The notes: generated from the letters alone by a model not told the origin. A stretch of 52,867 nt of DNA from Deltaproteobacteria bacterium (GCA_031263525.1 JAISFP010000457.1:1-52867); one strand, 5' to 3'. Counted from the first letter of the stretch, positions 24,097-46,004 are shown. Translations and numbers: made by a program.

Positions 24097-27666
<3,570 letters not shown>

Positions 27667-27750
27667 GCGCCGTGACGCACGCCAGGAAAGCAGGGACAGA
27701 TCTCGCGGCTTGCAAAGGACGGAGGCGAACTGCCGGGTCATGGCGAAACG

Positions 27751-28372
27751 GGAGAGATACGGAGGGAAGCGGAGAGATACGGAGGGAAGCGGAGGGATAC
27801 GGAGGGAAGCGGAGGGATAAGGAGGGAAGCGGAGGGATATGGAGGGAAACTGAGATATACGGAGAGAAGCGGAAAGATACGGTGGGATACGGAAGGAAGC
27901 GGAGATATGCGGAGGGAAGCGAAGATATGCGGAGGTATAGGCAGAGAAACTGAGGGAAGCGGATGGATACGGAGGGAAACTGAGACATACGGAGGGAAAC
28001 TGAGATATACGGAGGAAAGCGTAGGGACACGGAGGGAAGCGGAGATATACGGAGGTAAATAGAGATATGCAGAGGGAAGCGGAGATATGCGGAGGTATAC
28101 GCAGAGAAACTGAGGGAAGCAGAGGGATACGGAGGGAAGCGGAGATATACGGAGGCATAGGCAGAGAAACAAAAGGAAGCGGAGATATACGGAGGGAAGC
28201 GGAGATATGCGGAGGGAAGCGGAGATATGCGGAGGGAAGCGGAGATATACGGAGGTATAGGCAGAGAAACAAAAGGAAGCGGAGGGGTACGGAGGGAAGC
28301 GGAGAAATACGGAGGGAAGAGGAGAAATACGGAGGGAAGCGGAAAAATACGGAGTGAAACGGATGGAAAGGC
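27751..28372. repeat. 622-bp purine-rich minisatellite: about 31 copies of a 20-bp unit (GGAGATATACGGAGGGAAGC and variants; 10-bp sub-period; a 40-bp higher-order variant containing GCAGAGAAAC)
   Basis: Parsed unit by unit from the sequence. The plus strand is almost entirely G/A with an ATAT/ATAC core. It lies directly 3' of dnaE at the edge of the lower-GC block. Confidence 0.9.
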
Positions 28373-28645
28373 AAGAACGCACTGAACGACCCTGACGGCT
28401 CGGTCTGATTGACCACTTCCTGGCCAGCCACCTGTCATTCGAGGAGGTTAGGATAGGTTTAATTTTCGGGAAGGCAACCGTACAATACCTGAGACGGGGG
28501 TCATGCCTCCGGGGACGGGTCGATCCTGATCCTGGACCAGATTGAATCTCCTCTGGGGAACAGATGCCCGTAATGACCAGGCTCTTGCGCTAAGCATTGC
28601 ACGAGAGCGCGACGGGGCCGACCATCCTCAGACGAGCCTGTAAAT

Positions 28646-29563
28646 ATGAGCGATGCCACGTCGTTTGCCCGTGAGGAAATTACGATGACGCACAAGGAAG
28701 AAAACTCAAAGGAAGATCAGGACAGATTTTCCGCCGCGCTGGAATGGTATTTTGCCGACAAGCCTTACGGGTCCAAGACCGAACTGTCGGTGCTTCTGGG
28801 AAAGTCTAAGGGCTTCGTTTCATCCGTGACCTCCAAGAACATCGTCAGTCCCGAATCCCGCCGACTTATCAGCGCAGGGCTGGGCATTCCCCTTGAGACA
28901 ATGCTCAAGGCAGGACAGGTAATTCTCGATGGCGGTGACCCGGGACCGAAGATGCCGGACTTTCCCCGTACAGACTGGCACGGAAACCCGCTTAAGCCCG
29001 GCGGACTGGCAACAACAAAAATGTGGACGCCCAAATCCGGTCCGCCACTGCCTAAGGGAGCCGAGAATTACATAGCGGCCGCATTGGACACCAAAATTTT
29101 CAAGGTTCCGATGACATACGTCATGCGCCTTGTGCCGGACGAGTCAGGCAACCTTGTCTTTCCCACGGACGCGTCCAGTTCGGACAGTCCGATATCGTTG
29201 TCTCAAGCAATGTTTCCAGGCATAGACCCAAAGAACATTCACGCAGTGAGAATGATGGAAACTTGCATGGAACCTCTTCTCCACAAGCATGACATTCTGA
29301 TCGTGGACACCTCACGAAAAAAGGGTTACGACATACTGCAAAAAGTGCTGTACATGGTGGAGAGCGAGCATGCCGGAGTTAAAATTGCCGTGCCAAGGTT
29401 TGTTTCTTTAGGGAAAGATGAATATCACACTCTAATATATGCATTGAATTCCCGGAGATGGTGGCCGATACGCGTTGACCTGCGCGAACTGGAAGTTATG
29501 GGCACAGTTATTATGAGCATATGGCCATTTCAAAATATGTCTAAACCAATTTTTCGAACATAA
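28646..29563 (+). CDS. CI/LexA-like transcriptional repressor: N-terminal HTH plus a C-terminal S24-peptidase-like domain with Cys in place of the nucleophilic Ser
   Basis: An HTH-like segment is present (SKTELSVLLGKSKGFVSSVTS...RLISAGLGIPLETML). The C-terminal region aligns by eye to the S24 pattern (VRMMETCMEPLLHKHDILIVD...VKIAV...VMGTVIMSIW versus the GDSMEP...GD.V.VD...K...V.G.V consensus). The more likely start is the ATG at 28685, which is preceded by TGAGGAA. Confidence 0.65.
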   Translation: MSDATSFAREEITMTHKEENSKEDQDRFSAALEWYFADKPYGSKTELSVLLGKSKGFVSSVTSKNIVSPESRRLISAGLGIPLETMLKAGQVILDGGDPGPKMPDFPRTDWHGNPLKPGGLATTKMWTPKSGPPLPKGAENYIAAALDTKIFKVPMTYVMRLVPDESGNLVFPTDASSSDSPISLSQAMFPGIDPKNIHAVRMMETCMEPLLHKHDILIVDTSRKKGYDILQKVLYMVESEHAGVKIAVPRFVSLGKDEYHTLIYALNSRRWWPIRVDLRELEVMGTVIMSIWPFQNMSKPIFRT

Positions 29564-29875: not shown

Positions 29876-30079
29876 ATGAATGAAAATTTCGAGGGTCAAG
29901 GTGACTGGGGTGACATACTGGTCAAAACAGAGCATAAGGCTAGAATGTCAATCTTCGATCTTCTTCGAGAATGGATCTATGATGAATTCCGAAGCAAAAA
30001 CTGTGAAAATACTCACTGGAAATATACAAACTCAAACGTTGAAAACGCATGGAATCTCAGAAAATTTGAAAATTTCTGA
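29876..30079 (+). CDS. Hypothetical small protein (67 aa), status uncertain
   Basis: This is an ORF in the AT-rich spacer whose translation has a protein-like composition. It overlaps an alternative-frame ORF (29880..30338) whose ATG has better spacing to the GGAGG at 29870-29874. No family was recognised. Confidence 0.2.
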   Translation: MNENFEGQGDWGDILVKTEHKARMSIFDLLREWIYDEFRSKNCENTHWKYTNSNVENAWNLRKFENF

Positions 30080-30188
30080 CATTCTTTCAAACAGAAGATC
30101 TCGTCGGAAAGATCAGGTGACAGATCTAGAAAGGGCCGACCACGCAGAGCATAGGGGACTTTCCGAGCAGGAAATGAAATGGCCAACT

Positions 30189-30200
30189 GGGGGGGGGGGG
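30189..30200. other. Homopolymeric G12 tract
   Basis: Counted directly (ctgg gggggggggg c). It lies inside ORF 29880..30338 in an otherwise AT-rich region. Confidence 0.9.
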
Positions 30201-30297
30201 CGAGTCACAAACCACGATCCAGAAGCACTTGCGGATGAATCTGGCTATGTCATTGATATCAAAGGGCGTGACACCGAAAAAGTAGGACGGTACGCCG

Positions 30298-30600
30298 GTG
30301 AATCGAGAAGGGTTCAACGAGGCTATAGACGAGGTTAAGAAGCAATTCTTCAAACTGGACGTCTGCCTGGGAAGCTGTGAGGTGTGTCTGGAGCTTTACC
30401 TGGACGTCCTGTTGCGCCAGGAGGACAACGGGGAGCACCCGGACAGAAAGGAACACGAAGAAGAAAAAGAAGACGAGAAGAAAAGGGAGAAGGAGAAGGA
30501 GAAGGAGAAGGATGAGGAGGACGGGGAGAAGGAGAAGGAGAAGGATGAGGAGGACGGGGAGAAGGTGAAGAAGGGGAGGAGGTGGACGGGGAGAAGGTGA
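30298..30600 (+). CDS. Hypothetical protein with a Glu/Lys-rich repetitive tail, status uncertain
   Basis: GTG-initiated ORF. The tail is encoded by tandem repeats (GAGAAGGAGAAGGAGAAGGATGAGGAGGACGGG x2, then GGGGAGAAGGTGAAGAAGGGGAGGAG x2). No family was recognised. Confidence 0.2.
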   Translation: MNREGFNEAIDEVKKQFFKLDVCLGSCEVCLELYLDVLLRQEDNGEHPDRKEHEEEKEDEKKREKEKEKEKDEEDGEKEKEKDEEDGEKVKKGRRWTGRR

Positions 30601-30803
30601 AGAAGGGGAGGAGAAGGACAAGCACTCCGGGCCGGAGTCTACAGGGGAAACGAAAGAAGCCCAATGGCCCGAGGATCGGTAACGGCAAGCTACCGCGACA
30701 TGATCAACTGAACTGACACGCTACCTGTGACGAGGGGCAGGCGAACATCACGGAAGAGTCCCGGGAATACCTCATGCGTGTCGGTTCGGAAGAAAGGCGA
30801 ACC

Positions 30804-33437
30804 TCAGCGGGCATCCCCGGTCTTCTTGGACGCAAGGTGTATTCTGAGAGGAGGAGGAGCGCTAACCGTGGCCAAGGCCTTGAACCGGTCCATTATGTCG
30901 ATGTCCATGGACTGCCGGTAGAGCGTGATGCCGTGCTCCTCCAGGGAACGGTCAATCTTGATCAGCAGTTCCGAAAGGATGGCCACTGTCTTCGACACGG
31001 GAGAGACAGTCACGAAGAGGTTGAACTCCAAGTAATTTTCGTTCAGGTCCTCGAGCACCGCCTCGGGAGGGGGGCTGGTCTCGATACCTTCCACGCCCTC
31101 ACACGCGTCACTGATGAGCTTCAGGGCGTAGGAGATGTCGGTCCCGTAGAAGACCCGAATGACAAGTGTGCGAAGGAGCCTGTTCGGCTGTTCCTCGGTG
31201 GACCAGTTGGTGAATTCGTTGGAGACCATGGCCGAGTTGGGTATGAACACAACAGTCCCGCCAAGGGTGATCACCTCGGTACAGCGAAAGTCAACTTTCC
31301 TCACGGTGCCGGAAATCTTTCCAACCTCCACGAAATCGCCCGCCTTAACGGAGCGACCGAAAATGAGGATGATGCCACTCGCCATGTTGTTGGCAAGCGT
31401 CTGAAGACCGAAGCCTATCGCCGCGCCCAAGCCGGCTGCAGCTGCGGCAAGGCTAGTCCAGTTCACGCCCAGAAGTCCGAGCGCTATCAGGACGAAAGCC
31501 GTCCATACTATGTAGGTGAGGATCGTCCGAATGGACATCCTCTGCATCTGGTTGAGCTCCAGCTCTTCAGGCAGGTGTTCGAGAGAGGTGTTTCCGAACT
31601 TCCTGAGTGATCTGAACAGGAAAAAGCAGGCCAGGATAATGAACACCTTGGTGAGGCTAACCGAGGCCTCCCCTATGTTGAGTCCGGCGGTCAGGAAAGT
31701 CAGGAACATTGAGTCCAGGCCGGGTATCGCTACAATCCACGGAACGGTCAGAACCAGGGAAAGCGACCAGGAGGCAGGAACAAGAAACGCGTTCAGAACG
31801 GAGTACTTGACCGGATTCCTTTCCGAATGATAAATGCTGTCGCAGAGGATGGTCCCGAGCATCGCGAACGAGTTGCCAAGGATCAGCACGTTAACGAGGG
31901 TAAAGAGAACCATGAAGGAGAGGATGGCGATCCTGGGGTATCCGACCACGGTCATGACGAGAGAAATCAGAGCGAAATAGAAGGCTGAACCGTAAGCGAA
32001 ACGCTCGAGCAGATGTCCCCGCAACTCCTCGTGCATTCTCGAGCGTCTCGTCAGGGTGCGCAGATAGCTGAGGAAGAAAAGCAGGACGCCGAACCAGAGG
32101 ATTGCGAGAGCTCCTGTCGGAATGTCGACGAAGAGGAAGAGAGCTCCCAGAACAGCAGGGGCGAAGAACCTGGTCAGGGGAGATGTCTGAATCGCAAGGT
32201 CAGGTTTGGCGGCAAGCCTGAGTTTCCAGCTGATCCTGGCAAGTCCCCATATGAGCGTCAGTATACCGGGGATGAAGAAGAAAAGAAATTTTCTGCCGTC
32301 CTGATTATGAAAGCCGTTGGACAGCGCGAACCCTACATTGACGTAGATCCAGGGACCTTTCACGATCCGAAGCACCGCGTTCTTCCAGTTGTCAAATTTG
32401 TCAGGCAGGTACCGCGAACCGCGATACAGCAGGATTCCTATCAGGGCGACGATTCCGGCAGTCATGAAGAACCTTGTCACGCATGATGTCCAGTCCTCCC
32501 TGATCTGGGGATAGAGATACTGCTTTTTGGCATAAAACAGTTCCTTCCATTTGGAGACGTAGCCGTTTTCTCCGGTCAGCTCGGGAATGTCAAAAGATGT
32601 CAGCCTGCTTTCCGTCAAGTAGTACGCTTTCCAGTTGCCGGGGATCATGTCCTCGAAAAGGCCGATGCTGGCGTCAAGGACGTTTATCAGCGCGATGGCA
32701 TCGTTCATTCTTGTCGATGCCGAATCATAGACCATCTGGGCCCTGGACCGGTATGAAAGCATCTCGGAAACGTCTGACTCTTGAGAGTCATGACCGGCGA
32801 ACGCCTCGTCGAAAAACTGCAGATCCGCCCTGAACTCCTCTGTCATGGAGTCCAGGTTTTTCAAGTTGCGGGCGAGAAAGTCCCTCTCCTTGCGCAACAT
32901 TATGAGTATGTCACCCTCCACGTGGGGGCTGGAGGCAAGCGCATGGAATTCTCGTCTGAGAGTGTCAGTCTCGGATTTCGTAGCCTTGGTAAGCTTGACA
33001 AAATTTTTGAGCTCAGAAGCGAGCCTGTCAGCATGGCCGTTCATGGTCAGGGCAAGATCCGGAAGTTCCATCCGATCGCCGGAAAGGTACGGGTCGGCAG
33101 GACGACCGTGCATCCCCGTGATGTCCTGTCTCTCCTGTCCATTCTGAACGTCCTGGGCGTCCTGGACATCGGACATGGAACCTGCTGCCCCTGACCGACT
33201 GACATCATCGGCCGCGACAGTAAGCCCTGGGTCTTCTGAAGCGTCGCGAATGCCGTCGTCCGGCCGACCTGATAAAACCGGCGGCCTGAAGGCCTGACCG
33301 TCGGGCAGTGATTCAGGCGGGGAAACGTCCTGGGCTCCAGCCGCGGTCAAGGCAGATGAAAACACGACAGCGGAAAAAAAGAGAAGTGAGGCCAGGATGC
33401 CGACCGCTTTCATATTGAGGGCAGGAGGGGATTTCAT
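30804..33437 (-). CDS. Giant MscS-family mechanosensitive channel, MscK/MscM-like (paralog A, 877 aa)
   Basis: It has a signal-peptide-like N-terminus (MKAVGILASLLFFSAVVFSSALTAAGA), a low-complexity linker and a helical periplasmic region. About 10-11 hydrophobic segments follow. The C-terminal MscS core is present (AAAAGLGAAIGFGLQTLANNMASGIILIFGRSVKAGDFVEVGKISGTVRKV...VVFIPNS). Confidence 0.9.
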   Translation of the reverse strand: MKSPPALNMKAVGILASLLFFSAVVFSSALTAAGAQDVSPPESLPDGQAFRPPVLSGRPDDGIRDASEDPGLTVAADDVSRSGAAGSMSDVQDAQDVQNGQERQDITGMHGRPADPYLSGDRMELPDLALTMNGHADRLASELKNFVKLTKATKSETDTLRREFHALASSPHVEGDILIMLRKERDFLARNLKNLDSMTEEFRADLQFFDEAFAGHDSQESDVSEMLSYRSRAQMVYDSASTRMNDAIALINVLDASIGLFEDMIPGNWKAYYLTESRLTSFDIPELTGENGYVSKWKELFYAKKQYLYPQIREDWTSCVTRFFMTAGIVALIGILLYRGSRYLPDKFDNWKNAVLRIVKGPWIYVNVGFALSNGFHNQDGRKFLFFFIPGILTLIWGLARISWKLRLAAKPDLAIQTSPLTRFFAPAVLGALFLFVDIPTGALAILWFGVLLFFLSYLRTLTRRSRMHEELRGHLLERFAYGSAFYFALISLVMTVVGYPRIAILSFMVLFTLVNVLILGNSFAMLGTILCDSIYHSERNPVKYSVLNAFLVPASWSLSLVLTVPWIVAIPGLDSMFLTFLTAGLNIGEASVSLTKVFIILACFFLFRSLRKFGNTSLEHLPEELELNQMQRMSIRTILTYIVWTAFVLIALGLLGVNWTSLAAAAAGLGAAIGFGLQTLANNMASGIILIFGRSVKAGDFVEVGKISGTVRKVDFRCTEVITLGGTVVFIPNSAMVSNEFTNWSTEEQPNRLLRTLVIRVFYGTDISYALKLISDACEGVEGIETSPPPEAVLEDLNENYLEFNLFVTVSPVSKTVAILSELLIKIDRSLEEHGITLYRQSMDIDIMDRFKALATVSAPPPLRIHLASKKTGDAR

Positions 33438-33588
33438 AAGGGCACCGAAGAGACAGACGAGTTGTCTGGGCTGGAAGCAAGAAAGGCGTTTAAGGACGGA
33501 CAGAGGAACAAACAGACAACCGGAGTAGGAGGAGAAGAGCGACAGAAGCGGCGAGCGAAAACGGACGGACCGGAGACGACTGTAAAGT

Positions 33589-33622
33589 GACCGGCTGTCC
33601 AGTCGAAGAAGGGCAGCCGGTC
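33589..33622 (-). promoter_or_regulatory. 9-bp-stem hairpin (GACCGGCTG...CAGCCGGTC) in the spacer between paralogs B and A
   Basis: Complementarity was read directly. On the minus strand only a weak T-stretch (TTTAC) follows, so terminator function is uncertain. Confidence 0.25.
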
Positions 33623-33801
33623 AAGTCACGTTTTCCGGGGAGTCTCGGGAAGGCCTCTCAAGATGGCAGGGAACACGAAAGTCCGGACAGGCCAGCGGTA
33701 TTGCCGTGTGCGGGGTGAACCGGACGGGAAAACTCGCAAGCCGGATACCGGACAGCTGAAGTTCATGGGCCGGCCCCTCCCGCGCAAGGCAGCCAGCCGT
33801 C

Positions 33802-36630
33802 CTACGACATTATGATCGGCCCGGTCTCCCCGCGGCCCCCGGCGCGGTCCTCCCCCGAACCTCCCTGGAGGACCTGCAGGGCTTTCGAGAGGTTTATCTC
33901 GAGCGACTGGCGGTACAGCTTGATGCCGTTCTGGAAGAACGACTCCTCGATCTTTACCCTCAGGTCCGAAAGGATGTAGGTTGTCCTGGAGATGGGGCGG
34001 ACAAAAACGAAAAGGTTGAACTCGAGATATTTCTCGTTCAGATCGTTAAGCACCGCCATTGGAGCCGGATCCTTCACCACGCCGTCAACGTCTTCGCTGA
34101 CTGCCTTAAGGAGCCTGAGGGCAAGCGCGATGTCGGTGCCGTAATAGGCCCTTATCACCAGCGTACGCTTGAGGATCTCGGCTTTGCCTTCCGTTGTCCA
34201 GTTGGTGAACTCGTTGGAAATGATTGCCGAGTTCGGAACGAAAACAATCGGGCCTCCCAGCGTCTTCACCTCGGTGCAACGGAAATCGACTTTCATGACG
34301 GTGCCGGAAACGTTTCCTACTTCTACGAAGTCACCAACCTTTACGGAACGTCCGAATATCAGGATTATCCCGCTTAAAATGTTATTAAAAATTGTCTGGA
34401 GCCCGAAACCGATTCCGGCACCCAGACCGGCGGCAGCGACTGCCAGGCTTGTCCAGTTGACGCCCAGAAGCCCCATCGCGATCACGGCGAAGGCGATCCA
34501 GACGAGGTATGTAAGAATGGTCTGAATTGACATCCTCTGGGCCTGGTTCAGTTCGAACTCCTCTGGCAGGTGCTCGAGCGATGTGCTTCCGAACCTGCGA
34601 AGGGATCTGAACAGGAAAAAACATCCCAGGATCATCAGCACCCTGGAAATGCTGAAGGAGGCCGAGCCAATGTTATGTCCTGCCGTAAGGAAGTTCATGA
34701 GAATCGAGGTCAGTCCCGGAATTGCAATTAGCCACGGGAGCGTGCAGAGGAGCGAGACTGACCAGGTGACGGGAAGTAGAAGCGCTATCAGAATGGAGTA
34801 TTTGACCGGATGGTTGTCCGAAGGAAAAACCCCGTTGCAGAAATTGGATCCGAGCTCGGCGAAAGCGTTGCCCAGAATAAGAATGTTCACGATCGTGAAG
34901 AACAGCATGAACACGAGCACGGCTAGCCTGGGGTAGCCTGCTACGTTAATGACGAGAGATATTACCGCGAAATACCCTGCCGAGCCGTAGGCGAAGCGCT
35001 CGAGCAGGTAGCCCTTCATAGCTTCGGTCACATCTGTGCGCTTTCCTCTTTTCCACAGCATGTACATGAAGAGAAACAGCATGGCAAACCAGAGGACAGA
35101 CAGCACCCCGGTAGGCACTTCCGCGTACAGGAAAAACACGCCGAAAACCGTTGGCGGGTAGAAACGCGTGAGCGGAGAATTCTGGCCTGCCAGAGTGGGC
35201 TTGGCCGCAATACGCAGCTTCCAGCTTGTCGCGGCGATTCCCCAGATGAGTATGACAACGCCAGGGACCAGGAAGAACAGGAAATTTACGCCCTGCTGGT
35301 TTCGCGAGGCGTTGCAGAGGGCCAGGCCAAGAGTCAGGTAGAGCCATGGACCCTTGACTATCCCCACAACTGCGGCTTTCCAGTTAACCGGCTCTACTGG
35401 GAAATAGCCGGCCCCGTGGTAAAGGATGATACCGAGAAGGGTAATGAGCCCGGCGGTCATGAAAAACCTGGTGATGCTCTGTTGCCAGGCTTCCCACGTC
35501 TGAGGGTAAAAGAGCCTGCCCTTTTCGACGATGTCTCTTTTCCATTCCGCGATGTAGCCGCCATCGCCTGTCAGCTTGGGAATTTCGAACGAAGTCAGGC
35601 TGCTGGTCTCCAGATAATATGCCCACCATCCGGCAGGTATCCTCTCCTCGAAGCGGCTGATGCGTTCTTCAAGGCTGCTTATCAGCTTTTGAGCCTCTGC
35701 GAGTTTTGCCGAAACGGTTTCAGATGTCCTTCTGAACAGAGGTATGCGGTCCGCCAGCAGTGTCTGGGCCCTGTCGACCGAGAGCGGTCCTCGCTCTGCC
35801 ATTGAATTTTCCAGTTCGTTCAGTCTCCTGCTGAAACCGTTGAACAAATCCTCCAGTGCCTTTTCCGACTGTGTCAAGGCATCGTGCTGTGCCCGCAGCT
35901 GACTCAGCCTGTTCTCCCGCTCGTGCGGCGTCACCCCTTTTCTCTGCTGGATTTCCCTTCTGAAATTTTGGCTGTTTTCGGCAGTGTCCCTGATAAGCTT
36001 TGTGAGTTTGCCTGACTCCTCACGCATTTGTGCTGAGAGCTCGTCAAGCCTGAGAAGAATTTCTGAAAGAGACAGGAGATCCGCCTCGTTTCCTGAAGAG
36101 ACGGCCTGAACGACGACCTCCTGACTTCCGGTTCCTTCCTGGGCCGGACTCGCCTCTCCGTTACCCCCGCCACTCGCTACCTGCGCACCTGTTCCGGGAG
36201 CGGCTCCCCCGTCCGTGTCTGCCGCGGCTGACCCCTCTCTGCCGGAGCCATCTTCAGTGCCGCTACCGGGTGCGGGACTCTCTGAGGAAGCCTGCACGGG
36301 TCCGGCATTTGCCGCACCGGAAGCCTGCAGCACGGAACTGTCGTCCCCGGAGGCGGAAGACTGCGCCGCGGCGCGGTCGTCCCCGGAGGAGAAAGCCTGC
36401 GCCGCGGCGCGGTCGTCAGGCGAAGCGGACACGGACGCGGAACCGAGGGAAAGGACGGCAATGATGGCGGCTGCGGCCAGCGAAGCGGAAAGAAGGGTTT
36501 TCATGAGGGTACCACAGGTAAGGAAGGTGTTGTTCGGAGCAGATTCGAGGTCTGCGGGCAGCATCTGGCCGGGACCCGCAGATAAACCGTCCCTCACGGG
36601 ATCGTGAAAGGAAAAGTTTAAGGATTTCAT
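33802..36630 (-). CDS. Giant MscS-family mechanosensitive channel, MscK/MscM-like (paralog B, 942 aa)
   Basis: It has the same architecture and core motifs as paralog A (AAAGLGAGIGFGLQTIFNNILSGIILIFGRSVKVGDFVEVGNVSGTVMKV...IVFVPNS). The ATG at 36630 overlaps the stop of paralog C (ATGA) and is preceded by AAGAGG. The signal-like segment MKTLLSASLAAAAIIAVL only starts at residue 43, so an alternative start is the ATG at 36504. Confidence 0.88.
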   Translation of the reverse strand: MKSLNFSFHDPVRDGLSAGPGQMLPADLESAPNNTFLTCGTLMKTLLSASLAAAAIIAVLSLGSASVSASPDDRAAAQAFSSGDDRAAAQSSASGDDSSVLQASGAANAGPVQASSESPAPGSGTEDGSGREGSAAADTDGGAAPGTGAQVASGGGNGEASPAQEGTGSQEVVVQAVSSGNEADLLSLSEILLRLDELSAQMREESGKLTKLIRDTAENSQNFRREIQQRKGVTPHERENRLSQLRAQHDALTQSEKALEDLFNGFSRRLNELENSMAERGPLSVDRAQTLLADRIPLFRRTSETVSAKLAEAQKLISSLEERISRFEERIPAGWWAYYLETSSLTSFEIPKLTGDGGYIAEWKRDIVEKGRLFYPQTWEAWQQSITRFFMTAGLITLLGIILYHGAGYFPVEPVNWKAAVVGIVKGPWLYLTLGLALCNASRNQQGVNFLFFLVPGVVILIWGIAATSWKLRIAAKPTLAGQNSPLTRFYPPTVFGVFFLYAEVPTGVLSVLWFAMLFLFMYMLWKRGKRTDVTEAMKGYLLERFAYGSAGYFAVISLVINVAGYPRLAVLVFMLFFTIVNILILGNAFAELGSNFCNGVFPSDNHPVKYSILIALLLPVTWSVSLLCTLPWLIAIPGLTSILMNFLTAGHNIGSASFSISRVLMILGCFFLFRSLRRFGSTSLEHLPEEFELNQAQRMSIQTILTYLVWIAFAVIAMGLLGVNWTSLAVAAAGLGAGIGFGLQTIFNNILSGIILIFGRSVKVGDFVEVGNVSGTVMKVDFRCTEVKTLGGPIVFVPNSAIISNEFTNWTTEGKAEILKRTLVIRAYYGTDIALALRLLKAVSEDVDGVVKDPAPMAVLNDLNEKYLEFNLFVFVRPISRTTYILSDLRVKIEESFFQNGIKLYRQSLEINLSKALQVLQGGSGEDRAGGRGETGPIIMS

Positions 36631-39407
36631 CGACAGGCCTCTTGCGAAATTTTCGCGGGGGTCCCGGAGACCGACTCCCTGGCCGACCGGATGCCGTCCA
36701 GGGCTTCCCGTACGTTAATCTCCAGGGACTGGCGGTAGAGCTTGATCCCGTGGGCATAAAATGACTTCTCTATCCTCACCCTGAGCCCGGAGAGTATGGC
36801 GACGGTCCTGCTCACTGGCTTCACGGTGATGAAGAGGTTGAATTCCAGATATTTCTCGTTCAGATCGTTTAGCACCACTTCCGGAGCAGGAAAGTCGAGC
36901 ACCTCTGCTATGCCGCTGCAGGCTCCGAGGATGAGTTCGAGTGCAAGATCTATGTTGGTGCCGTAGAACGCCCTTATGACTAGAGTGCGCAGTACCTGGT
37001 CGAACTCTCCCTCGCGCGTCCATTTGACATATTCGGTGGAGACGATGGTGTAGTTCGGAATATAGGCAATGGAGCCGTCCAGCGTCTCTATCTCCGTGCA
37101 GCGCAGATCGACTCTTCTCACCGTGCCCGAATAGGCGCCGATCTCGACGAAATCGCCGACTTTGAGGGATCGGCCGAACACGAGGAGCACGCCGCCCACC
37201 AGGTTGGCGAATATGCCCTGGAGACCGAAGCCGAGCCCAGCCCCTATAGCTCCAAGCACGACGGTCAGGGTTGTCCAGTTGAAGCCCAGGAGCCCCATCG
37301 CGACCATCACGAAAGTGATCCAGATGACATATGTCATCAGTGTCTTGATAGGATCTATCTGAGCCGGGGACAGCTCTATCTCGTCAGGCAGATTCTCGAG
37401 AGAGGTGCTCCCCAGCGTCCTGAGCGAGCGGAACAAGAAAAACAGGCCGAGGATCAGGAGCACCCTCGTGAGATTGAACGATGCCTGCCCGACCGAATAG
37501 CCGGTGGTGAGCAGATTTTCCATAAGGGTCGTGGAGCCGGGGATGGCCCAGAGCCACGGGAACGTGCAGAGAAGAGAGATTGACCAGGTCACGGGCACGA
37601 GAAAGGCGTTCAGTATCGAATTCCTGACACGCGCGACGTCCTTGGGGAAAATCCTGTCGCAGAGAATGGTACCTAGCACCACGAAAGCGTTGCCGAGTAT
37701 GAGAACGTTCACGACCGTAAAAAGGAGCATGAACGCGAGCACGGCCAGCCTCGGAAAGCCTACAGCGGAGATGATGAAGGAAATGATTGCGAAATAGTAC
37801 GCCGACCCGTAGGCGAAACGCTCGAGCAGGAACCCCTTCAGCTCCTCGTCCTCCCTCGACCTCTTGCTGATCCTGAATAAATTGAAAAGGAAAAGCATGA
37901 GCACGACAAACCAGATGATCGATAGCGCCCCCGTCGGCACGTCCGCGAACAGGAACAACACGCCGAGGACTGCCGGAACATAAAAACGTCTCAGCGGCGA
38001 TTTGACGCCGGCCAGCTCGGATTTGGCGGCGAGTCTGAGTTTCCAGCTGGTCGAAGCCAAGCCCCAGATAAGAATGAGCACTCCGGGGATGAAAAATACT
38101 ATGTAATTTCCTCCCAGATGGTTGCGTGAAGCGTTCGCCAGGGCTACACCCACGGTCAGGTATCTCCAGGGTCCCCTGACGATACCCATGATCGCGACCC
38201 TCCAGTTGACTGGCTCCACAGGGAAAAGCCTTGAGCCGCGGTGCAGGAGAAATCCGACCAAGGCGATGGGCAGTCCGATAAGGACAAAGGAAGTCAGACT
38301 CTGCAGCCATCCGTCCGGATCCTGGGGATACAAAAATTTTTTCTTGTCGACCGTAAGGTTGACCCATTCGTAAAATGCGTCAGCCAACCCGGACATGCCT
38401 CCGTACCGCCCCCAGTCCCTGGAATTCATCACGCCGCTCTGCTCCAGATAATACTCCTTCCACGCCTCAGGTATCTGGGGAGAGTATTCGGCTATGTAAC
38501 CGTTCAGCTTATCAATGATCTTGCGACCTTCTTCCAAAACAGGACGGACATTTTCTGATATCCCCTTAGCTCGTAGCTCAGCCGCCTCCAGACTCGATTC
38601 CGTTTGGGTCCAGTCATCAGGCCTGGCGGCAGTCGAGACGGAGATGCTGGCTTTCCTCTTTGCCATTTCGTTAATCTTCTGGCCGAGAGTCAGGCTCTTT
38701 TCGCCAAGAGCTGTGATATTGCTGTCGATTGTCCGCTTTAGTCCCTTGAGCTGGCTCAGCACGTCTTCCCGGACGTGAGGGCTGTCGCTCATCCCTTCGT
38801 ATTCCTGAACGAGGATTCCCATAAGCTCAGACGTTTCGTCAATGGAATTCCTGATATCCGACAATTTTTTGTAAATGTCTTCGCAGTTCTTCATTACTGC
38901 CTTGATGAGAGCCGGAAAGCCCGAATACGGATCCTTTACAAGGAAAGGAAACAGCTCCGTCTGGCGTCCGGCAGTTTCATCGTTCCCGGATGTTGCAGGA
39001 TCACCGTCCGCAGCTCCAGAAACATCCGGAACCTCCTGGCCGCCGGACTCCATCTCCGGAGCCGTGCCCGTGCCTGTCGAACCGGAGCCTCCCTGAGCCG
39101 AAGTCACTGATCCTTCCCCGCGAACAAGGGGAATTTCACCAGGGGCCCTACTCACCACTACCCCGTCTCCAGCTCCCGGAGGCGGTCCCGTCAATGTCCA
39201 TGACAACTGCCCGCCTTCATGTACGGCGTCGCCGTCTCCCCTCGCAGCGGCGTCATCCGGCCGTCCCCGATCTGAACCTGCAGTGTCCGCCAGAGCCGCT
39301 GGAGCCTTGGCGAAAGGCATTGCACACGGCATGACCGCAAGGCAGGCAACGATTGCGCAGACAAGGAATACGTGCCTGGTCAAACGCGGGGAGATGTCGG
39401 CTTTCAT
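36627..39407 (-). CDS. Giant MscS-family mechanosensitive channel, MscK/MscM-like (paralog C, 926 aa)
   Basis: It has the same architecture as paralog A, with core GAIGAGLGFGLQGIFANLVGGVLLVFGRSLKVGDFVEIGAYSGTVRRV...IAYIPNY. A GGAGG lies 5 nt upstream of the ATG at 39407. Confidence 0.9.
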   Translation of the reverse strand: MKADISPRLTRHVFLVCAIVACLAVMPCAMPFAKAPAALADTAGSDRGRPDDAAARGDGDAVHEGGQLSWTLTGPPPGAGDGVVVSRAPGEIPLVRGEGSVTSAQGGSGSTGTGTAPEMESGGQEVPDVSGAADGDPATSGNDETAGRQTELFPFLVKDPYSGFPALIKAVMKNCEDIYKKLSDIRNSIDETSELMGILVQEYEGMSDSPHVREDVLSQLKGLKRTIDSNITALGEKSLTLGQKINEMAKRKASISVSTAARPDDWTQTESSLEAAELRAKGISENVRPVLEEGRKIIDKLNGYIAEYSPQIPEAWKEYYLEQSGVMNSRDWGRYGGMSGLADAFYEWVNLTVDKKKFLYPQDPDGWLQSLTSFVLIGLPIALVGFLLHRGSRLFPVEPVNWRVAIMGIVRGPWRYLTVGVALANASRNHLGGNYIVFFIPGVLILIWGLASTSWKLRLAAKSELAGVKSPLRRFYVPAVLGVLFLFADVPTGALSIIWFVVLMLFLFNLFRISKRSREDEELKGFLLERFAYGSAYYFAIISFIISAVGFPRLAVLAFMLLFTVVNVLILGNAFVVLGTILCDRIFPKDVARVRNSILNAFLVPVTWSISLLCTFPWLWAIPGSTTLMENLLTTGYSVGQASFNLTRVLLILGLFFLFRSLRTLGSTSLENLPDEIELSPAQIDPIKTLMTYVIWITFVMVAMGLLGFNWTTLTVVLGAIGAGLGFGLQGIFANLVGGVLLVFGRSLKVGDFVEIGAYSGTVRRVDLRCTEIETLDGSIAYIPNYTIVSTEYVKWTREGEFDQVLRTLVIRAFYGTNIDLALELILGACSGIAEVLDFPAPEVVLNDLNEKYLEFNLFITVKPVSRTVAILSGLRVRIEKSFYAHGIKLYRQSLEINVREALDGIRSARESVSGTPAKISQEACR

Positions 39408-39589
39408 GGAGTTCCTCCATGCAACGGTCGGGAAGTCGAACCTGGAAGAAAGAAGGTCACTGGCCCATCCGGACCCGTGGGGAGAAAGGTTTGCAAAACG
39501 ATGCTTATCCTACTAACTGGCACGGTCCGCCTGAAAACTGAGGAGGCTCTCTGCAAGCTCCGTCCGTAAAGGTGCAGGCGAGACGGCGG

Positions 39590-42500
39590 CTAAGATTCCG
39601 AGTGCCGGTCAACCATGACAGCCTGGATCTTCTGGCCGTCCTTGCCCCCCTGGAGGACCATCAAAGCCTCTTTGAGGTTGATCTCCAGGGACTGGCGATA
39701 GAGCTTTATTCCTCCGTCTTTCAAGGACTTCTCGATCTTCACTCTCAAATCGGAGAGGATGTCGAGGGTCCTCTCGATGGGATGCACCGAGACGAAGAGG
39801 TTGAACTCCAGAAACTTCTCGTTGAGATCGCTCAAAATGACCTTGGCTTCCGGATCTTTGCATACTTCGTCAATACCGCCGACGGCCTCCTTGATCAAGC
39901 GAATGGCATCTTCAACAATCGTGTCGTAGATAGTCCTAATGACAAGCGTCCTCCTGAGTGCTGATCCCTTGTACTGCTTGTCATGCCTCTCCTGAATATC
40001 CTGCTTACCCTGACTATCCTCCTTCCCCTGGCTATCCTCCTTGTCCAGGTTATCCTGTCTATCCTGCTTGTCCTGAATGTCTTGGATATCCTGCCTATCC
40101 TTCTTTCCGTCCAATTCCTCGTCGGTCCAATTGACCAGCTTCGTCGAGACGATCGTGGAATTGGGGACATAGACGAGCGAGTTGTCCAGCGTTTTTACCA
40201 CGGTGCAACGGAAGTCCACTCTCGTTACCAAGCCGGAAATCCCGTCCACCTCCACGAAGTCGCCGACCTTGACCGAGCGTCCGAAAATCAGGATGATTCC
40301 GCTAACCATGTTGTTGAAAATGTTCTGGAGACCTATGCCCAGGCCAAGCCCGAGGCCGCTCGCCGCGACGGCCAGGCTTGTCCAGTTGACTCCCAGCATC
40401 CCCATGACCAGCACGGTGAACACAATCCAGACAACATACGTGAGGATCGTCTGGATTGGAGCCCGTTGCGCAGGTTTCAGCTCGAGCTCCTCTGGCAGGT
40501 TGTCGATGGAGGTCTTCCCGAGGTTCATGAGCGATCTGAACATGAAGAACAACCCCAGGATAAGGAGCACCTTTGTCAGATCGAAGGATGCCTCCCCCAC
40601 CGAGTAGCCTTTGGTGAGCAGGCTCATCAGAAGGGTAGTCATGCCGGGGATGGCAATGAGCCAGGGAATGGTGCATCCGAGCGATACAAGCCAGGTTATG
40701 GGGAGCAGGAAGGCGTTCAGGATCGAGAACTTGACAGGCTTCTTGTCTGACGGCAAGATCCTGTTGCTGATGTTTGAAGCGAGCGCCGCAAACGCATTGC
40801 CGAGCAGAAGCACGTTGACTATTGTGAAAAGGAACATGAAGGCGAGTATGGCTAGCCTGGGATAGCCCAACACCGCAATCAAAAGCGACAGGATCGCAAA
40901 ATACACGGCAGAGCCGTAGGCAAAGCGCTCGAGCAGGAAACCAGTGTGAACGTAGAAAACGCTCCAGGATTTCCCCTCGCTAAAGACAGAAACAAGATCT
41001 ATACCAGCACCATCTGTCGCACCGTTCGTAACCTGCGCACCGTCTGAGGCCGCAACAGGATCGGGAACCTTACCCTCCGTCGGTTCGGCAGATGCCGGAA
41101 CATGCACTCCGTTGCCGTTAACGTCCACTTGCACACTGGCATCCCCGCGATTTCCGGCCTCCTTGCCTTTCGCCAACCTCTCGGCCTTCATGGCCTCCTG
41201 AACAATCTTGCCCATGTGCCACAGCCAGACAAGAAACCCTCCCATGATGGCGAACCACAGAATTGCCAGAGCACCGGTCGGCATGTCGGCAAAAAGCAGG
41301 ACCACACCCAGCGCGGCTGGGATGTAGAAGCGTGTCAACGGGGACTTCACGTTGTCCAGCCCCTTCTTGACCGCCTGCCTCAGCTTCCAGCTGGTGCCGG
41401 CGAGCCCCCATATCAGTATCAGCACGCCGGGAAAAAACAGGAAGAGATAGTTCCCGCCATGGTGATTTCGGGACGCGTTCCAGAGCGCCAGCCCGATTGT
41501 CAGAAAGAACCAGGGTCCCCTGACGATACCTTCAATCGCCTTGTGCCAGTCCGTCTCGCTGCCGTTTCCATCAGATGCGATCTTCGATTTCCAGAAACCT
41601 CTGCAATACCACAGGATCAACCCCCACAGGGTCGACAGCAGTCGAATTATGGCCCAGTTCGTATGTTCAACGATCTCTCGCTCACCTGATTTTTTCCTGA
41701 AAATATTCTCGGCGATCTGTACGAGAACGACACCCACCAGTGCCACGATCCCCATGGTCATTAGAAAAGTGGTTACGCACTCCAGCAATTCCTTGCTCGT
41801 CTGTGGCAGGAAAAATTTTCTCTTGGCAGCCAGCTTGCTGACCCAGTCGGAGAAGTAGCCGCCTTCTCCAGTGAAATCCGGGATTGCAAACGAAGTGAGC
41901 CTGCTCTCGGTCAGGTAATATGCCTTCCACGCCTCTGGTATCTCTGATGAATATCGGACGATGAACCCGTCAAGCCGGTCCAGGAGGGCCTTGGCCTCGC
42001 CTGTGGCTGACGGCACCTCCTCGGAAAGCCACCTGAAATAGTATTCGGCCCTCAGGACATCGGCCTGGACGCTCTGCCAGTTTTCCGGAATGGTCCCGCT
42101 GGAGCTGCGCACGCTGGCGTTCAGGTCGTTCAGGTCGGCCGCCTTCGGGGCCAGGACATCAGCCTCGGAATCCAGCGAGGCAGTCTCGTCGGCCAGTGCC
42201 GTCCGGATCCCCTTCAGCTGGCTGAGTATGTCCTCCTGGACGTGAGGTGTCACCTCGGGTCTCAGGTACTCCCTCAGAAGCAGATTCTGCTCTCCGGCGG
42301 TAGAAGTTACGAAAGCCCTGAGCTCGCGGCATCCCTCGGCGATCCGGACTGAGAGAGCCAGGAACTCCCTCGAGCGTTCAGCAAGCGCGTCGTGAGGGTT
42401 GTCGACGTTAACCGGGGCGAGCGCAGTCCAGCGTTCCGGCGGGACGGCCTGTCCCAGCCCGACCGGAGGCATTCGCGGAAGCACTCCCGGAACGGGCTTA

Positions 42501-42928
42501 CTCGCCGGAACCGCCGGATCCCCCCCATCACCTGGCATGGAGCCGTTCGCCGACACAACGGATGCAGCTTCGGCACCTGGCGGGAGTCCGTTTCCAGGAG
42601 CGGTCCCGGTCGGGGCGGCAGGCTCTGCTCCGCCGGCCTGGGAAGGCTGTGCGGTCGGCGCTTCCGACGGCGCCCCGACGTCCTGCCGTGCCTGCGAGGC
42701 TTCGGGAGCCCGGCCATCCTCAACTCCCGCGGAAACTTCCGGATCCGCCAGGCTGCCCTCCCGACCGTTCTCCCCGTAAACCCCCTCCGACCGGGGGGCA
42801 GCATTGCCTGCAACGCCGCCTGCCCTGTCAGAGCCATCGTCCTGGGCTGCGGCGGGTGCCAGGGGGACTGCGATTGATACGGCCAGCATGAGGGCTGCGG
42901 CCAGAGACGCGGAGAGAGGCGTTCTCAT
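39590..42928 (-). CDS. Giant MscS-family mechanosensitive channel, MscK/MscM-like (paralog D, 1112 aa, three lineage-specific insertions)
   Basis: It has a signal-like N-terminus (MRTPLSASLAAALMLAVSIAVPLAPAAA) and the core ASGLGLGLGIGLQNIFNNMVSGIILIFGRSVKVGDFVEVDGISGLVTRV...LVYVPNS. An AGGAG lies 4-5 nt upstream of the ATG. It is the first gene of the co-oriented array. Confidence 0.9.
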   Translation of the reverse strand: MRTPLSASLAAALMLAVSIAVPLAPAAAQDDGSDRAGGVAGNAAPRSEGVYGENGREGSLADPEVSAGVEDGRAPEASQARQDVGAPSEAPTAQPSQAGGAEPAAPTGTAPGNGLPPGAEAASVVSANGSMPGDGGDPAVPASKPVPGVLPRMPPVGLGQAVPPERWTALAPVNVDNPHDALAERSREFLALSVRIAEGCRELRAFVTSTAGEQNLLLREYLRPEVTPHVQEDILSQLKGIRTALADETASLDSEADVLAPKAADLNDLNASVRSSSGTIPENWQSVQADVLRAEYYFRWLSEEVPSATGEAKALLDRLDGFIVRYSSEIPEAWKAYYLTESRLTSFAIPDFTGEGGYFSDWVSKLAAKRKFFLPQTSKELLECVTTFLMTMGIVALVGVVLVQIAENIFRKKSGEREIVEHTNWAIIRLLSTLWGLILWYCRGFWKSKIASDGNGSETDWHKAIEGIVRGPWFFLTIGLALWNASRNHHGGNYLFLFFPGVLILIWGLAGTSWKLRQAVKKGLDNVKSPLTRFYIPAALGVVLLFADMPTGALAILWFAIMGGFLVWLWHMGKIVQEAMKAERLAKGKEAGNRGDASVQVDVNGNGVHVPASAEPTEGKVPDPVAASDGAQVTNGATDGAGIDLVSVFSEGKSWSVFYVHTGFLLERFAYGSAVYFAILSLLIAVLGYPRLAILAFMFLFTIVNVLLLGNAFAALASNISNRILPSDKKPVKFSILNAFLLPITWLVSLGCTIPWLIAIPGMTTLLMSLLTKGYSVGEASFDLTKVLLILGLFFMFRSLMNLGKTSIDNLPEELELKPAQRAPIQTILTYVVWIVFTVLVMGMLGVNWTSLAVAASGLGLGLGIGLQNIFNNMVSGIILIFGRSVKVGDFVEVDGISGLVTRVDFRCTVVKTLDNSLVYVPNSTIVSTKLVNWTDEELDGKKDRQDIQDIQDKQDRQDNLDKEDSQGKEDSQGKQDIQERHDKQYKGSALRRTLVIRTIYDTIVEDAIRLIKEAVGGIDEVCKDPEAKVILSDLNEKFLEFNLFVSVHPIERTLDILSDLRVKIEKSLKDGGIKLYRQSLEINLKEALMVLQGGKDGQKIQAVMVDRHSES

Positions 42929-43903: not shown

Positions 43904-44217
43904 GCCTTGACCCTCACTTCCGCCTGCCAGAGCCGCCTTGACCCTCACTTCCGCCTGCCAGAGCCGCCTTGACCCTCACTTCCGCCCGCCAGGGCCGCCT
44001 TGGACCTCACTTCCGCCTGCCAGATCCGCCTCGACCCTCACTTCCGCCCGCCAGGGCCGCCTCGACCTTCACTTCCGCCCGCCAGGGCCGCCTTGGACCT
44101 CACTTCCGCCCGCCAGGGCCGCCTCGACCCTCACTTCCGCCCGCCAGGGCCGCCTTGACCCTCACTTCCGCCCGCCAGGGCCGCCTTGCACCTCACTTCC
44201 GCCCGCCAGGGCCGCCG
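43904..44217. repeat. 31-bp tandem repeat GCCTTGACCCTCACTTCCGCC(T/C)GCCAG(A/G)GCC, about 10 copies
   Basis: Parsed directly. The period of 31 is not a multiple of 3. Variants are limited to a few positions (TTGACC/TCGACC/TTGGAC, CTGCCAGAG/CCGCCAGGG). Confidence 0.9.
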
Positions 44218-44977
44218 TTCCCATGGCTTCCACCTTACCGGTCGACTAACCCTACTCTCTCCTCTCAAGCCCCTCAGCTCCCTCCCCTTCCGCATTCCAA
44301 GGCATCACCTCTTGCCCATCCGCCTTCCCGAACATCCGGGCATTGCCCTGCCGCCTTCCTTCCGAAGCCCTCAGAGCCCCGCCTTCAGCCACCCTCAAAA
44401 TATAGTCCTGACCCTGCCTCCAGCCGCATCCCCCTCCCCTTGCCCTCCGCTGTCATAAAACACCACCACTTGAGCAAACGAATTCCCCAACATCTTCAAT
44501 CTGCATGCTCCCAGAACCTCCAGATAATTCGACCGTACAATTAATTTTTTTACATTTAACTAATCGGCATGGCCAGCTTATAATTCACGTTTGTCAGGCT
44601 AAACATCACGTAACTTAAATCATCACTAATTCTTATGCCACACGTATGCCTGCAAAGGTTTAACAATCTGAATCGGTTAGCCTTCTCCAGTTTCAGGACG
44701 CAAACAGTCGCCGGGGACGTCAGGCAACCCGACCGGCGGCGCTCCCCGCCCTCATACCATCAAGTTCTCCGGCCCTTCGGCCCTTTGCCCCTTTGCGCTC
44801 CGGCCTTTCGGCCCTCCGATTCTCCGTCTCTCAGGTCATCGGGGGAACCTCCAGTGCCGCGCCGGGACCACGGTTTCTGCTATACTGCGGCGGGTTTCCT
44901 CGCCCGAACCGGTGCCTCAGACGGCTTCGCTCCCACCGTCTTCTCTAGCAGCCTCAAACCCAGGACCCTCCCAAGCC

Positions 44978-45982
44978 ATGCTCCAGAACACCCTGGCCCT
45001 TCTGAACAGGCTCCCCGACGCCTACGTGCTGGCGGCGGGGGACGTCATGCTCGACCGCTTCGTCTACGGCGAGGCGGCGCGCCTCTCCCCGGAGGCCCCC
45101 GTGCCCGTGGTGGAGGTCCGCCGAAAGACATGGACCCCAGGCGGGCTCGGGAACGTAGTGATGAATCTCCACGCTCTGGGGGCCAAGGCCCTGGCGGCAG
45201 GCGTCGTGGGCGCGGACGGCAAGGCGGACGCCCTCCGGAACCTCCTGCAGGTCGCGCTCACGGACGGATCGCCGGGGTTCCTGACCGACCCGGACCGCCC
45301 CACCACCGTGAAAACCAGGGTTATCGCCGGGATCCAGCAGGTGGTGCGCTTCGACGAGGAGTCCGTCCGGGACGTGAGCCCTGCCGTGGAGACGGCCTAC
45401 ATGGAGGGCGCGGCGAAAGCCTTCCCCAGGGCGGGGGCGCTAACGGTCTCGGACTACGGCAAGGGGCTCCTGACCCCGTCCGTGCTCTCCTTCCTGCTCG
45501 CCAAGGCTATCGAGCACGGCATACCGTCCGTAGTCGATCCGAAGGGTTCAGACTACGAGCGCTACAGGGGCGCCACCCTGGTCACCCCGAACCGGGCGGA
45601 GCTGTCGCTTGCCCTGGGCAGGGATCTCACCCGCGCCCCGCAGGACAGGCTCGCCGAGGGCGGCAGGGAGCTCATGGCTCGCCACGGCCTGGAGAACATC
45701 CTCATCACCAGGAGCGAGGACGGCATGACCCTCCTCCTCTCCTGCGGGAAGACCATGCACCTGCCCACCCGCGCGCGGGCGGTCTTCGACGTGAGCGGGG
45801 CCGGCGACACCGTCGTGGCTGCCATGGCCGCCGCCCTCGCCGTGGGCGCCTCCCTGCCAGAGGGCGCGGCGCTGGCCTCTCTCGCAGCCGGGGTAGTGGT
45901 CGGCAAGGTGGGCACAGCCACCGCCAGCCCAGAGGAGATCAGGGAGTGGACCGCCTTCGCGGAGCTCTCCTCGGCCACGTAG
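44978..45982 (+). CDS. hldA: D-glycero-beta-D-manno-heptose-7-phosphate kinase (RfaE domain I / HldA, PfkB family)
   Basis: The start is at the in-frame ATG at 44978 (MLQNTLALLNRL). The RfaE-type motif GDVMLDRFVYGEAARLSPEAPVPVV and the C-terminal PfkB motif SGAGDTVVAAMA are present. There is no adenylyltransferase domain. Confidence 0.87.
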   Translation: MLQNTLALLNRLPDAYVLAAGDVMLDRFVYGEAARLSPEAPVPVVEVRRKTWTPGGLGNVVMNLHALGAKALAAGVVGADGKADALRNLLQVALTDGSPGFLTDPDRPTTVKTRVIAGIQQVVRFDEESVRDVSPAVETAYMEGAAKAFPRAGALTVSDYGKGLLTPSVLSFLLAKAIEHGIPSVVDPKGSDYERYRGATLVTPNRAELSLALGRDLTRAPQDRLAEGGRELMARHGLENILITRSEDGMTLLLSCGKTMHLPTRARAVFDVSGAGDTVVAAMAAALAVGASLPEGAALASLAAGVVVGKVGTATASPEEIREWTAFAELSSAT

Positions 45983-46004
45983 GAGCCGGGCTTCCGGGTC
46001 CTTA

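Follow-up and report, generated by a model that had tools for sequence, protein, structure and literature searches.

A 52,867-nucleotide (nt) stretch of DNA from a Deltaproteobacteria bacterium (GCA_031263525.1 JAISFP010000457.1:1-52867; hereafter the window) contains four co-oriented minus-strand open reading frames (ORFs) that fill positions 30804-42928, each of which ends in the core of an MscS-type mechanosensitive channel. The array is a rare lineage-specific expansion of a gene family, carried by a termite-gut bacterium; it represents neither a new kind of system nor a new mechanism. The four genes are intact, anciently duplicated paralogs of a rare MscS-type subfamily and probably serve as separate, differently tuned osmotic release valves. 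A first-pass annotation, made from the sequence alone, had described four tandem, co-oriented minus-strand genes with MscS cores, and this description is borne out by exact ORF coordinates and Pfam matches. The genes are as follows.

39590-42928, minus strand: channel A, 1112-amino-acid (aa) ORF, the paralog closest to pfkB and pth, with three lineage-specific insertions in the alignment
36627-39407, minus strand: channel B, 926-aa ORF, with its Pfam core at residues 690-889
33802-36504, minus strand: channel C, 900 aa from the homology-supported start
30804-33437, minus strand: channel D, 877-aa ORF, the paralog closest to dnaE

Pfam families MS_channel_1st, MS_channel_2nd and MS_channel_3rd match all four proteins at or above curated cut-offs within the last ~250 residues (residues 827-1075 in channel A). 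The pore-forming transmembrane (TM) helices TM2/TM3 (PF21088) score 23.3-32.2 bits against a cut-off of 23.1, the beta domain (PF00924) scores 63-72 bits against 20.2, and the alpha-beta domain (PF21082) scores 21.0-27.7 bits against 21, with channel B exactly at the cut-off (21.0). The Gly/Ala-rich TM3 aligns with that of MscK and MscS. The pore helix, which follows the pattern G.G(F/I)GLQ.(I/L)(F/A).N...G in the four proteins, aligns with MscK and MscM (E values 5e-30 and 4e-26); the segment AAGLGAGIGFGLQTIFNN.LSGIILIFGRSVKVGDFVEVG aligns with its MscK counterpart. The core motifs GRS(V/L)K(V/A)GDFVE(V/I) and (I/V)PN(S/Y), which the first-pass annotation had listed together with an AWK.YYL junction, are present in all four aligned channels. 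On these sequence criteria the four channels belong to the MscS superfamily.

The four proteins align end to end with overall pairwise identities of 43-49%, which are distributed unevenly along their length. The MscS core is the best conserved part (54-68% pairwise), followed by the junction plus TM1-8 (52-57%), and the periplasmic helical region has diverged much further (18-29%), so that the contrast once judged by eye between conserved membrane and core parts (52-68%) and diverged sensor parts is now quantified. The W..YYL junction is invariant. A further motif, (S/T)PHV.ED(I/V)LSQLK, had been ascribed to all four proteins; it is complete in channels A and B only, with TPHERENRLSQLRA at this position in the 942-aa frame of channel C and SPHVEGDILIMLRK in the 877-aa channel D, and the invariant part is P-H alone.

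Several insertions distinguish the paralogs from one another. In channel A, the cytoplasmic domain carries a ~48-aa KQD/DIQ-rich insert encoded by a 9/18-bp repeat at 39974-40105, and two more segments that B, C and D lack are inserted at residues ~404-455 and ~575-650 (window 40900-41700). The first of these follows TM1 and holds an extra hydrophobic stretch, WAIIRLLSTLWGLILWY; the second is a ~75-aa loop following the fifth membrane helix. A partial channel copy in another genome (L004, positions 1-130, described below) has four DAGEGKAAPQ units in its cytoplasmic domain. Low-complexity repeat inserts occupy different cytoplasmic-domain loops in different paralogs.

All four ORFs are intact over 2.6-3.3 kb each, with no frameshifts and no internal stops. 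Successive genes are separated by gaps of 182 nt, 123 nt (or an overlap, depending on the start of channel C) and 364 nt. An independent Logan assembly of SRR14710921 (L012) contains these four genes too and differs at just 2 of 12,641 bases (99.98% identity), and the array is therefore not an assembly artefact. A collapsed repeat is likewise ruled out by this agreement combined with the 43-49% identity among paralogs. The ATG codon of channel A is preceded by AGGAG, and that of channel B by GGAGG. The longest ORF of channel C spans 33802-36630 (942 aa); its ATG overlaps the TGA of channel B (ATGA) and is preceded by AAGAGG, which is the arrangement that had been taken for a translationally coupled pair. 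Starting at 36630 places 42 extra residues before a signal peptide, MKTLLSASLAAA, for which A, B and D have aligned counterparts at their N-termini, and the equivalent extension in an ortholog from another genome is unrelated sequence. As judged from these alignments, a start at 36504 (900 aa) is likelier. Channel C would then begin 123 nt after channel B, so translational coupling between the two is doubtful and the earlier claim of a coupled pair is not upheld.

The public automatic gene calls P0001, P0014 and P0015 (808, 920 and 790 aa) begin far inside the ORFs, so that signal peptide and linker are missing from them and the N-terminal architecture of this channel family is poorly represented in database entries. 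The signal sequence of channel B (39340-39407) contains a lipobox-like IVAC (Cys22), and those of A, C and D have AXA-type cleavage sites; channel B might, from its sequence, be lipid-anchored.

The array lies in an ordinary chromosomal setting. Genes for glutamate synthase, glutamine synthetase III, yidC, jag and dnaE occur on one side, and pfkB, pth and rubrerythrin occur on the other. Three of these flanking genes matter for comparison with related genomes.

24097-27666, plus strand: dnaE (DNA polymerase III alpha), with Pfam PHP, DNA_pol3_alpha, finger and HHH_6 matches; synteny anchor
44912-45982, plus strand: pfkB-type sugar kinase, 356 aa, 89% identical to a gene of L002 (below) that has a precomputed Pfam PfkB match; synteny anchor
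46196-47014, minus strand: pth (peptidyl-tRNA hydrolase), Pept_tRNA_hydro E value 6e-52; synteny anchor

The longest dnaE ORF begins ~103 codons (23788-24096) before the PHP domain start MSKSFVHLH, and the true start is probably near 24097. A 1484-aa minus-strand ORF at 23977-28431 that overlaps dnaE is a GC-rich shadow ORF.

Related metagenome-assembled genomes (MAGs) preserve this locus in different states. In Gx481_bin110 (L002) the order is pth, pfkB, one channel, dnaE. In Gx485_bin203 (L004), dnaE has beside it two full-length channel genes and, cut off by the contig edge, the C-terminal part of another; the copy number there is at least 3. A further MAG, Gx485_bin53, has two channel types at separate loci. 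The window dnaE shares 84% identity with the Gx485_bin203 gene and 77% with the Gx481_bin110 gene. In a neighbour-joining tree built on 675 well-aligned columns, channel C groups with the upstream Gx485_bin203 copy (L004:462-3236) with 100% bootstrap, 68% aa identity and a ratio of nonsynonymous to synonymous substitution rates (dN/dS) of 0.22. Channel A groups with the single-copy genes P0004/P0006 of Gx481_bin110 and Gx485_bin53 (99% bootstrap), and channel B has no strongly supported sister. The dnaE-proximal Gx485_bin203 copy (L004:3418-6090) is the positional counterpart of channel D. The order of channel genes is kept between the window and Gx485_bin203, two genomes with 16% dnaE divergence.

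The matching order of copies in Gx485_bin203, and a single copy at the same locus in Gx481_bin110, indicate that the duplication is old and local. The description of the genes as old paralogs stands on their 43-49% identity, saturated synonymous divergence (dS) and positional orthologs in a MAG with 84% dnaE identity. Judging from gene order and the tree, the array is older than the divergence of at least two rather distant genomes, and its site is occupied in a third by a single A-type gene. Recent amplification is ruled out by dS values above 1 and by the orthologs in another MAG.

Nei-Gojobori dN/dS estimates are 0.22-0.33 overall for ortholog and paralog pairs, although these values are rough because dS is saturated. 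Within the channel C ortholog pair, dN/dS is 0.13 in TM1-8, 0.18 in the core and 0.27 in the periplasmic bundle, and it ranges over 0.13-0.27 in the TM and core parts. These estimates point to purifying selection on all copies. Between orthologs (C, A and the A-type pair) bundle identity reaches 55-60% (dN/dS 0.26-0.40), compared with 18-29% between paralogs, which indicates that each paralog keeps its own outward-facing bundle. This paralog-specific conservation is the best argument for functional differentiation, albeit an indirect one drawn from sequence comparison. The earlier suggestion of differently gated valves gains support from it in the same indirect sense.

The predicted architecture accounts for the region ahead of the core. 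Hydropathy and AlphaFold2 models predict the same order for each channel, with a cleavable signal peptide, a disordered linker, a periplasmic three-helix bundle, ~11 TM helices, and the beta and alpha-beta domains, in agreement with the first-pass description of a signal peptide, linker, helical periplasmic domain and some 10-11 hydrophobic segments. The hydropathy count of ~11 TM segments matches the AlphaFold2 helix count, both being predictions. The acidic/Gly/Pro linker is disordered, about 90-150 aa long, and lies where the distal bundle of MscK/MscM would be. The channel D model, based on a 22-row alignment, has a mean predicted local distance difference test (pLDDT) score of 74.9; after a signal helix it has a disordered stretch at 27-122 (pLDDT below 50), three long helices at 125-274, helices at 313-693 that fit eleven membrane spans, and then the beta and alpha-beta domains. 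Its predicted domain map, by residue, is as follows.

~1-35: signal peptide
~36-122: disordered linker
125-274: three-helix bundle
269-274: W..YYL junction
~313-620: TM1-8
630-693: MscS core helices
702-834: beta plus alpha-beta domains

The channel B N-terminal module was modelled with a pLDDT of 84.3, with the bundle at module residues 11-155, and both models (D and B) have a single periplasmic bundle of ~150 aa. A Foldseek search of the Protein Data Bank (PDB) with the whole channel D model retrieves EcMscK first (7uw5, 7ux1; ~790 columns, E value 1e-20), and other MscS-family entries cover just the ~250-residue core. With the channel B N-terminal module alone, EcMscK is matched over 566-580 columns (7uw5, E value 5e-4; 7ux1, E value 1.8e-3) with TM-scores of 0.26-0.33 and root-mean-square deviations of 13-16 A; no other structure comes near significance. 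The models thus suggest an MscK/MscM-like eleven-TM architecture without the distal periplasmic bundle.

Large MscS-like channels with periplasmic domains are still little understood; to our knowledge, structures exist for MscK and MscM only, and the role of their bundles is just emerging. MscK (KefA; 7UW5/7UX1) and MscM (YjeP; 11SM and truncated constructs) have in common with the channels described here the pore helix motif GFGLQ.IF.N..SG and, going by the predicted architecture of the latter, an MscS core behind eight extra TM helices, a helical periplasmic domain and a signal peptide. In MscK and MscM, which span the membrane with eleven TM helices, the periplasmic domain of ~450 aa is arranged as two bundles, PB1 and PB2 (PMC13503660), whereas the models of the channels here have one bundle of ~150 aa and a disordered linker. 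At 877-942 aa, they resemble in length and domain content the engineered MscM constructs that lack the distal bundle (873-901 aa; 11sr, 11so; PMC13503660), and in the models they look like short MscK/MscM proteins. Removal of the distal bundle of MscM has no statistically significant electrophysiological effect, whereas mechanosensitivity and hysteresis fall when the proximal bundle, or both bundles, are removed (PMC13503660). Opening of MscK requires external K+ (PMC9653487). E. coli YbiO (7A46/9GO3) is an MscS-like channel of similar size (741 aa) with eleven TM helices and a periplasmic domain (PMC13503660), and its core match is weak (NCBIfam PRK11465, E values 1e-12 to 3e-6 over ~100 residues).

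Profile comparisons place the cores closest to MscK and MscM at the sequence level. A profile search of solved structures ranks MscK (6e-36) and MscM (6e-32) ahead of MscS, YnaI and YbiO, with best core matches of 5e-30 to 6e-36 for MscK and about 1e-26 to 1e-31 for MscM, and NCBIfam gives the same ranking, MscK first and MscM second. The scores fall far below the equivalog cut-offs. For MscK (NF008438) they are 115-153 bits against 991, from the core only (profile positions ~867-1091); for MscM (NF008180) they are 84-110 bits against 809, again from the core only; and for YbiO (NF008542) they are 26-47 bits against 596. Searches with MscS_TM (PF12794), MscS_porin (PF12795) and DUF3772 gave no match in the four channels even at E<=10, so that of the hidden Markov model (HMM) searches proposed earlier only those with MS_channel families were positive, and no Pfam family matches the 500-640 residues ahead of the core at that threshold. 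For the N-terminal parts, hhalign probabilities are 10% for MscK, 15% for MscM (residues 1-830/870) and 0.6% for YbiO. With scores this far under the cut-offs, one bundle and no N-terminal homology detected, the sequences do not qualify as members of either family and are not MscK/MscM orthologs. The MscK/MscM-class label of the first-pass annotation therefore holds for architecture only, and does not extend to NCBIfam scores, N-terminal homology or the possession of two bundles.

The family to which these channels belong is broad in its N-terminal module and narrow in its close relatives. A profile of that module, built from the four channels, matches 109 clusters (50% identity level) in a set of 1.84 billion representatives. 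Proteins of 780-900 aa that match over the whole bundle plus TM1-8 module, with the same MscS core following, make up most of them. Ten sampled wide-family members have MS_channel Pfam domains only; the N-terminal module is an uncharacterised family missed by current domain libraries. The close clade comprises 18 clusters among 5.8 billion proteins and, of 185,579 species genomes, is present in five MAGs; each bears the label 'Deltaproteobacteria bacterium', and they carry the sample codes Gx485, Gx481, Nm470 and Roe453. The codes Gx485, Nm470 and Roe453 correspond to guts of the lower termites Glyptotermes, Neotermes and Roisinitermes (PMC11707648). A homolog search with a broad N-terminal alignment returned the close clade alone. 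Cluster look-up of distant members gave one Lentisphaerae MAG and one further 'Deltaproteobacteria bacterium' MAG, with almost no other taxonomy, and a metagenome scan with a degenerate pattern gave at least one distant locus among the matches listed.

About 15 gene contexts were inspected across the close and wide family. Tandem arrays occur in two distinct contexts only, the window (seen again in L012) and L004; the other contexts are single-gene, the wide-family members examined stand alone in unrelated surroundings, and the close clade is the only one with such arrays. The E. coli genes mscK, mscM and ybiO are each single and lie dispersed, unlike the channels here, which agrees with the earlier remark that large channel genes are dispersed in well-studied bacteria. 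Tandem arrays of this kind are accordingly rare among the contexts examined, and the titles and abstracts retrieved contained nothing relevant on bacterial tandem MscS arrays. No channel relatives were found on plasmids. For three single-copy clade members from other termite-gut MAGs (L001, L013 and L014), phage-type integrases, a DDE transposase fragment or AbiEii/DUF6036 genes are found no more than a few kb away, which hints at movement of the family between genomes.

The composition of the locus is atypical. GC content is ~0.53-0.60 across 28-44.5 kb and ~0.65-0.75 in the flanks. GC content at third codon positions (GC3) is 0.68-0.80 in the arrayed copies of both MAGs compared with 0.86-0.88 in single-copy A-type orthologs; an ancient horizontal transfer inside the clade, weak expression or a combination of the two may account for this. 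Besides the channels, the block contains a repressor homolog, and it is edged by repeats found with Tandem Repeats Finder.

27745-28363, strand not assigned: minisatellite, 20-bp unit x31, at the dnaE edge of the low-GC block
28646-29563, plus strand: CI/LexA-like S24 repressor homolog, 305 aa, Pfam Peptidase_S24 E value 0.0046, below cut-off
30447-30619, strand not assigned: minisatellite, purine-rich 33-bp unit x3.4, after channel D
43904-44216, strand not assigned: minisatellite, 31-bp unit x10, 91% identity, upstream of channel A at the other block edge

Two more minisatellites occur beyond the block. One, at 45988-46289 (27/53-bp units x5-11), extends into the 3' end of the pth ORF, where it gives rise to a repetitive KGQEAQEDRKG tail; the other, with 24/72-bp units, is at 47114-47267.

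The S24 protein matches PHROG families phrog_4 (transcriptional repressor, E value 3e-6) and phrog_6201 (CI-like repressor, E value 5.7e-4), and a tblastn search gave no phage match. Its gene and the array are convergent, and at 0.57 its GC3 is lower still than that of the channels. An orphan 152-aa ORF at 29880-30338, with no phage or PHROG match, shares with it a 43% GC stretch between dnaE and the array. The corresponding gap of ~880 bp between the last channel and dnaE in Gx485_bin203 has no called gene and no ORF >=120 aa. The S24 gene and the 152-aa ORF look like a mobile-element remnant, and the S24 gene is probably not part of the module. Control of the array by the S24 repressor is unsupported, given that the gene is convergent and not conserved with the second array. 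A simple foreign island is not accepted as such either: the dnaE/pfkB/pth locus is syntenic, an A-type gene is present there in a relative, no tRNA was found in the window, and no plasmid relative was found. The earlier picture of a lower-GC island next to a repressor is consequently accurate as to the atypical composition and the presence of an S24 gene, and is not supported as to the rest, with the gene convergent and not conserved with the second array, and the locus being syntenic chromosome. An Rfam scan of the whole window gave no match, and alignment of the regions upstream of the four channel genes revealed no shared motif, promoter or operator; promoter and terminator scans are uninformative in this GC-rich organism. 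The first-pass annotation had also suggested a dedicated system. No accessory genes were found and gene order is conserved in one further MAG only; with no accessory genes, the locus is best read as a paralog array rather than a multi-component system.

The reading of the array as four separate osmotic valves draws on analogy with characterised channels. By comparison with MscS, MscK and MscM (PMC9653487, PMC13503660), each paralog would form its own homoheptamer. The common eleven-TM scaffold would sense membrane tension, open, and release solutes on a hypo-osmotic shift, as in those channels. The diverged bundles could then make the four valves differ in threshold, kinetics or ionic requirement, for which mechanosensitivity and hysteresis in MscM and K+ dependence in MscK offer a precedent. 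The outcome would be a graded response for a termite-gut bacterium.

Several observations weigh against this reading. Different gating of the four copies is pure inference. Sequence profiles (hhalign, HMM) find no N-terminal-module homology to MscK, MscM or YbiO, and with Foldseek TM-scores to MscK of no more than 0.23-0.33 it is not proven that TM1-8 adopt an equivalent fold. The orthology of channel D and the dnaE-proximal L004 copy has just 46% bootstrap at 52% identity, and dS is saturated at values above 1. In addition, channel GC3 is 0.68-0.71 compared with 0.94 in dnaE, 0.89 in pfkB and 0.82 in pth, which could mean low expression or foreign origin.

The main rival takes these last values further and sees the array as redundant or weakly used, a horizontally acquired or recombined low-GC block whose copies, without distinct roles, are kept by dosage or drift and are perhaps being lost. 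Depressed GC3 in the arrayed copies (0.68-0.80 versus 0.86-0.88 in single-copy A-type genes), a CI-like repressor remnant inside a block bracketed by minisatellites, the integrase, transposase or AbiE genes near L001, L013 and L014, and much faster evolution of the channels than of dnaE (52-68% versus 84% identity) would all fit such a history. We consider it unlikely, as four ORFs remain intact with dN/dS of 0.13-0.27 in TM and core, their order has persisted across 16% dnaE divergence, paralog-specific bundles are conserved between orthologs, and no relatives were found on plasmids.

A doubtful alternative is that the array is a sensor panel in which each bundle binds a different gut-lumen ion or small ligand and couples tension to chemistry, perhaps with heteromers of graded properties. 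If true, this would generalise the dual K+/tension gating of MscK and provide a natural set of ligand-tuned MscS-type channels on one scaffold.

Co-assembly of the paralogs into hetero-heptamers, with the array supplying subunits in fixed proportion, is improbable. The genes are co-oriented with short gaps and may be co-transcribed, and conservation is highest (54-68%) in the pore helix and beta domain, through which the subunits of MscS contact one another. Nevertheless, the solved MscS-family entries retrieved are all single-sequence assemblies, and a bacterial heteromeric MscS-like channel is not reported in the titles or abstracts retrieved. Relatives with one copy, or with two at separate loci (Gx481_bin110 and Gx485_bin53), show that single types evidently work alone; copy numbers of 1, at least 3, and 4 between genomes fit independent units better; and translational coupling is unsupported. 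Equally improbable is a role mainly as regulated exporters or sensors of solutes or metabolites rather than emergency valves, which could draw on the precedent of MscCG, the glutamate exporter of Corynebacterium, on MscS-like channels reported as specialised for amino-acid export (PMC6110860) and on long disordered acidic linkers and low-complexity cage insertions unusual for simple valves, but the block has no transport-related or regulatory partner genes, the pore core is of the standard MscK/MscM-like kind, and the sequence points to no particular substrate.

The four channels are natural variants of one design, with scaffolds that are 52-68% identical, bundles that are 18-29% identical, and a distal bundle that is naturally missing. 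They could serve as a comparative set with which to study the influence of the proximal bundle on threshold, hysteresis or ion dependence in large MscS-like channels.

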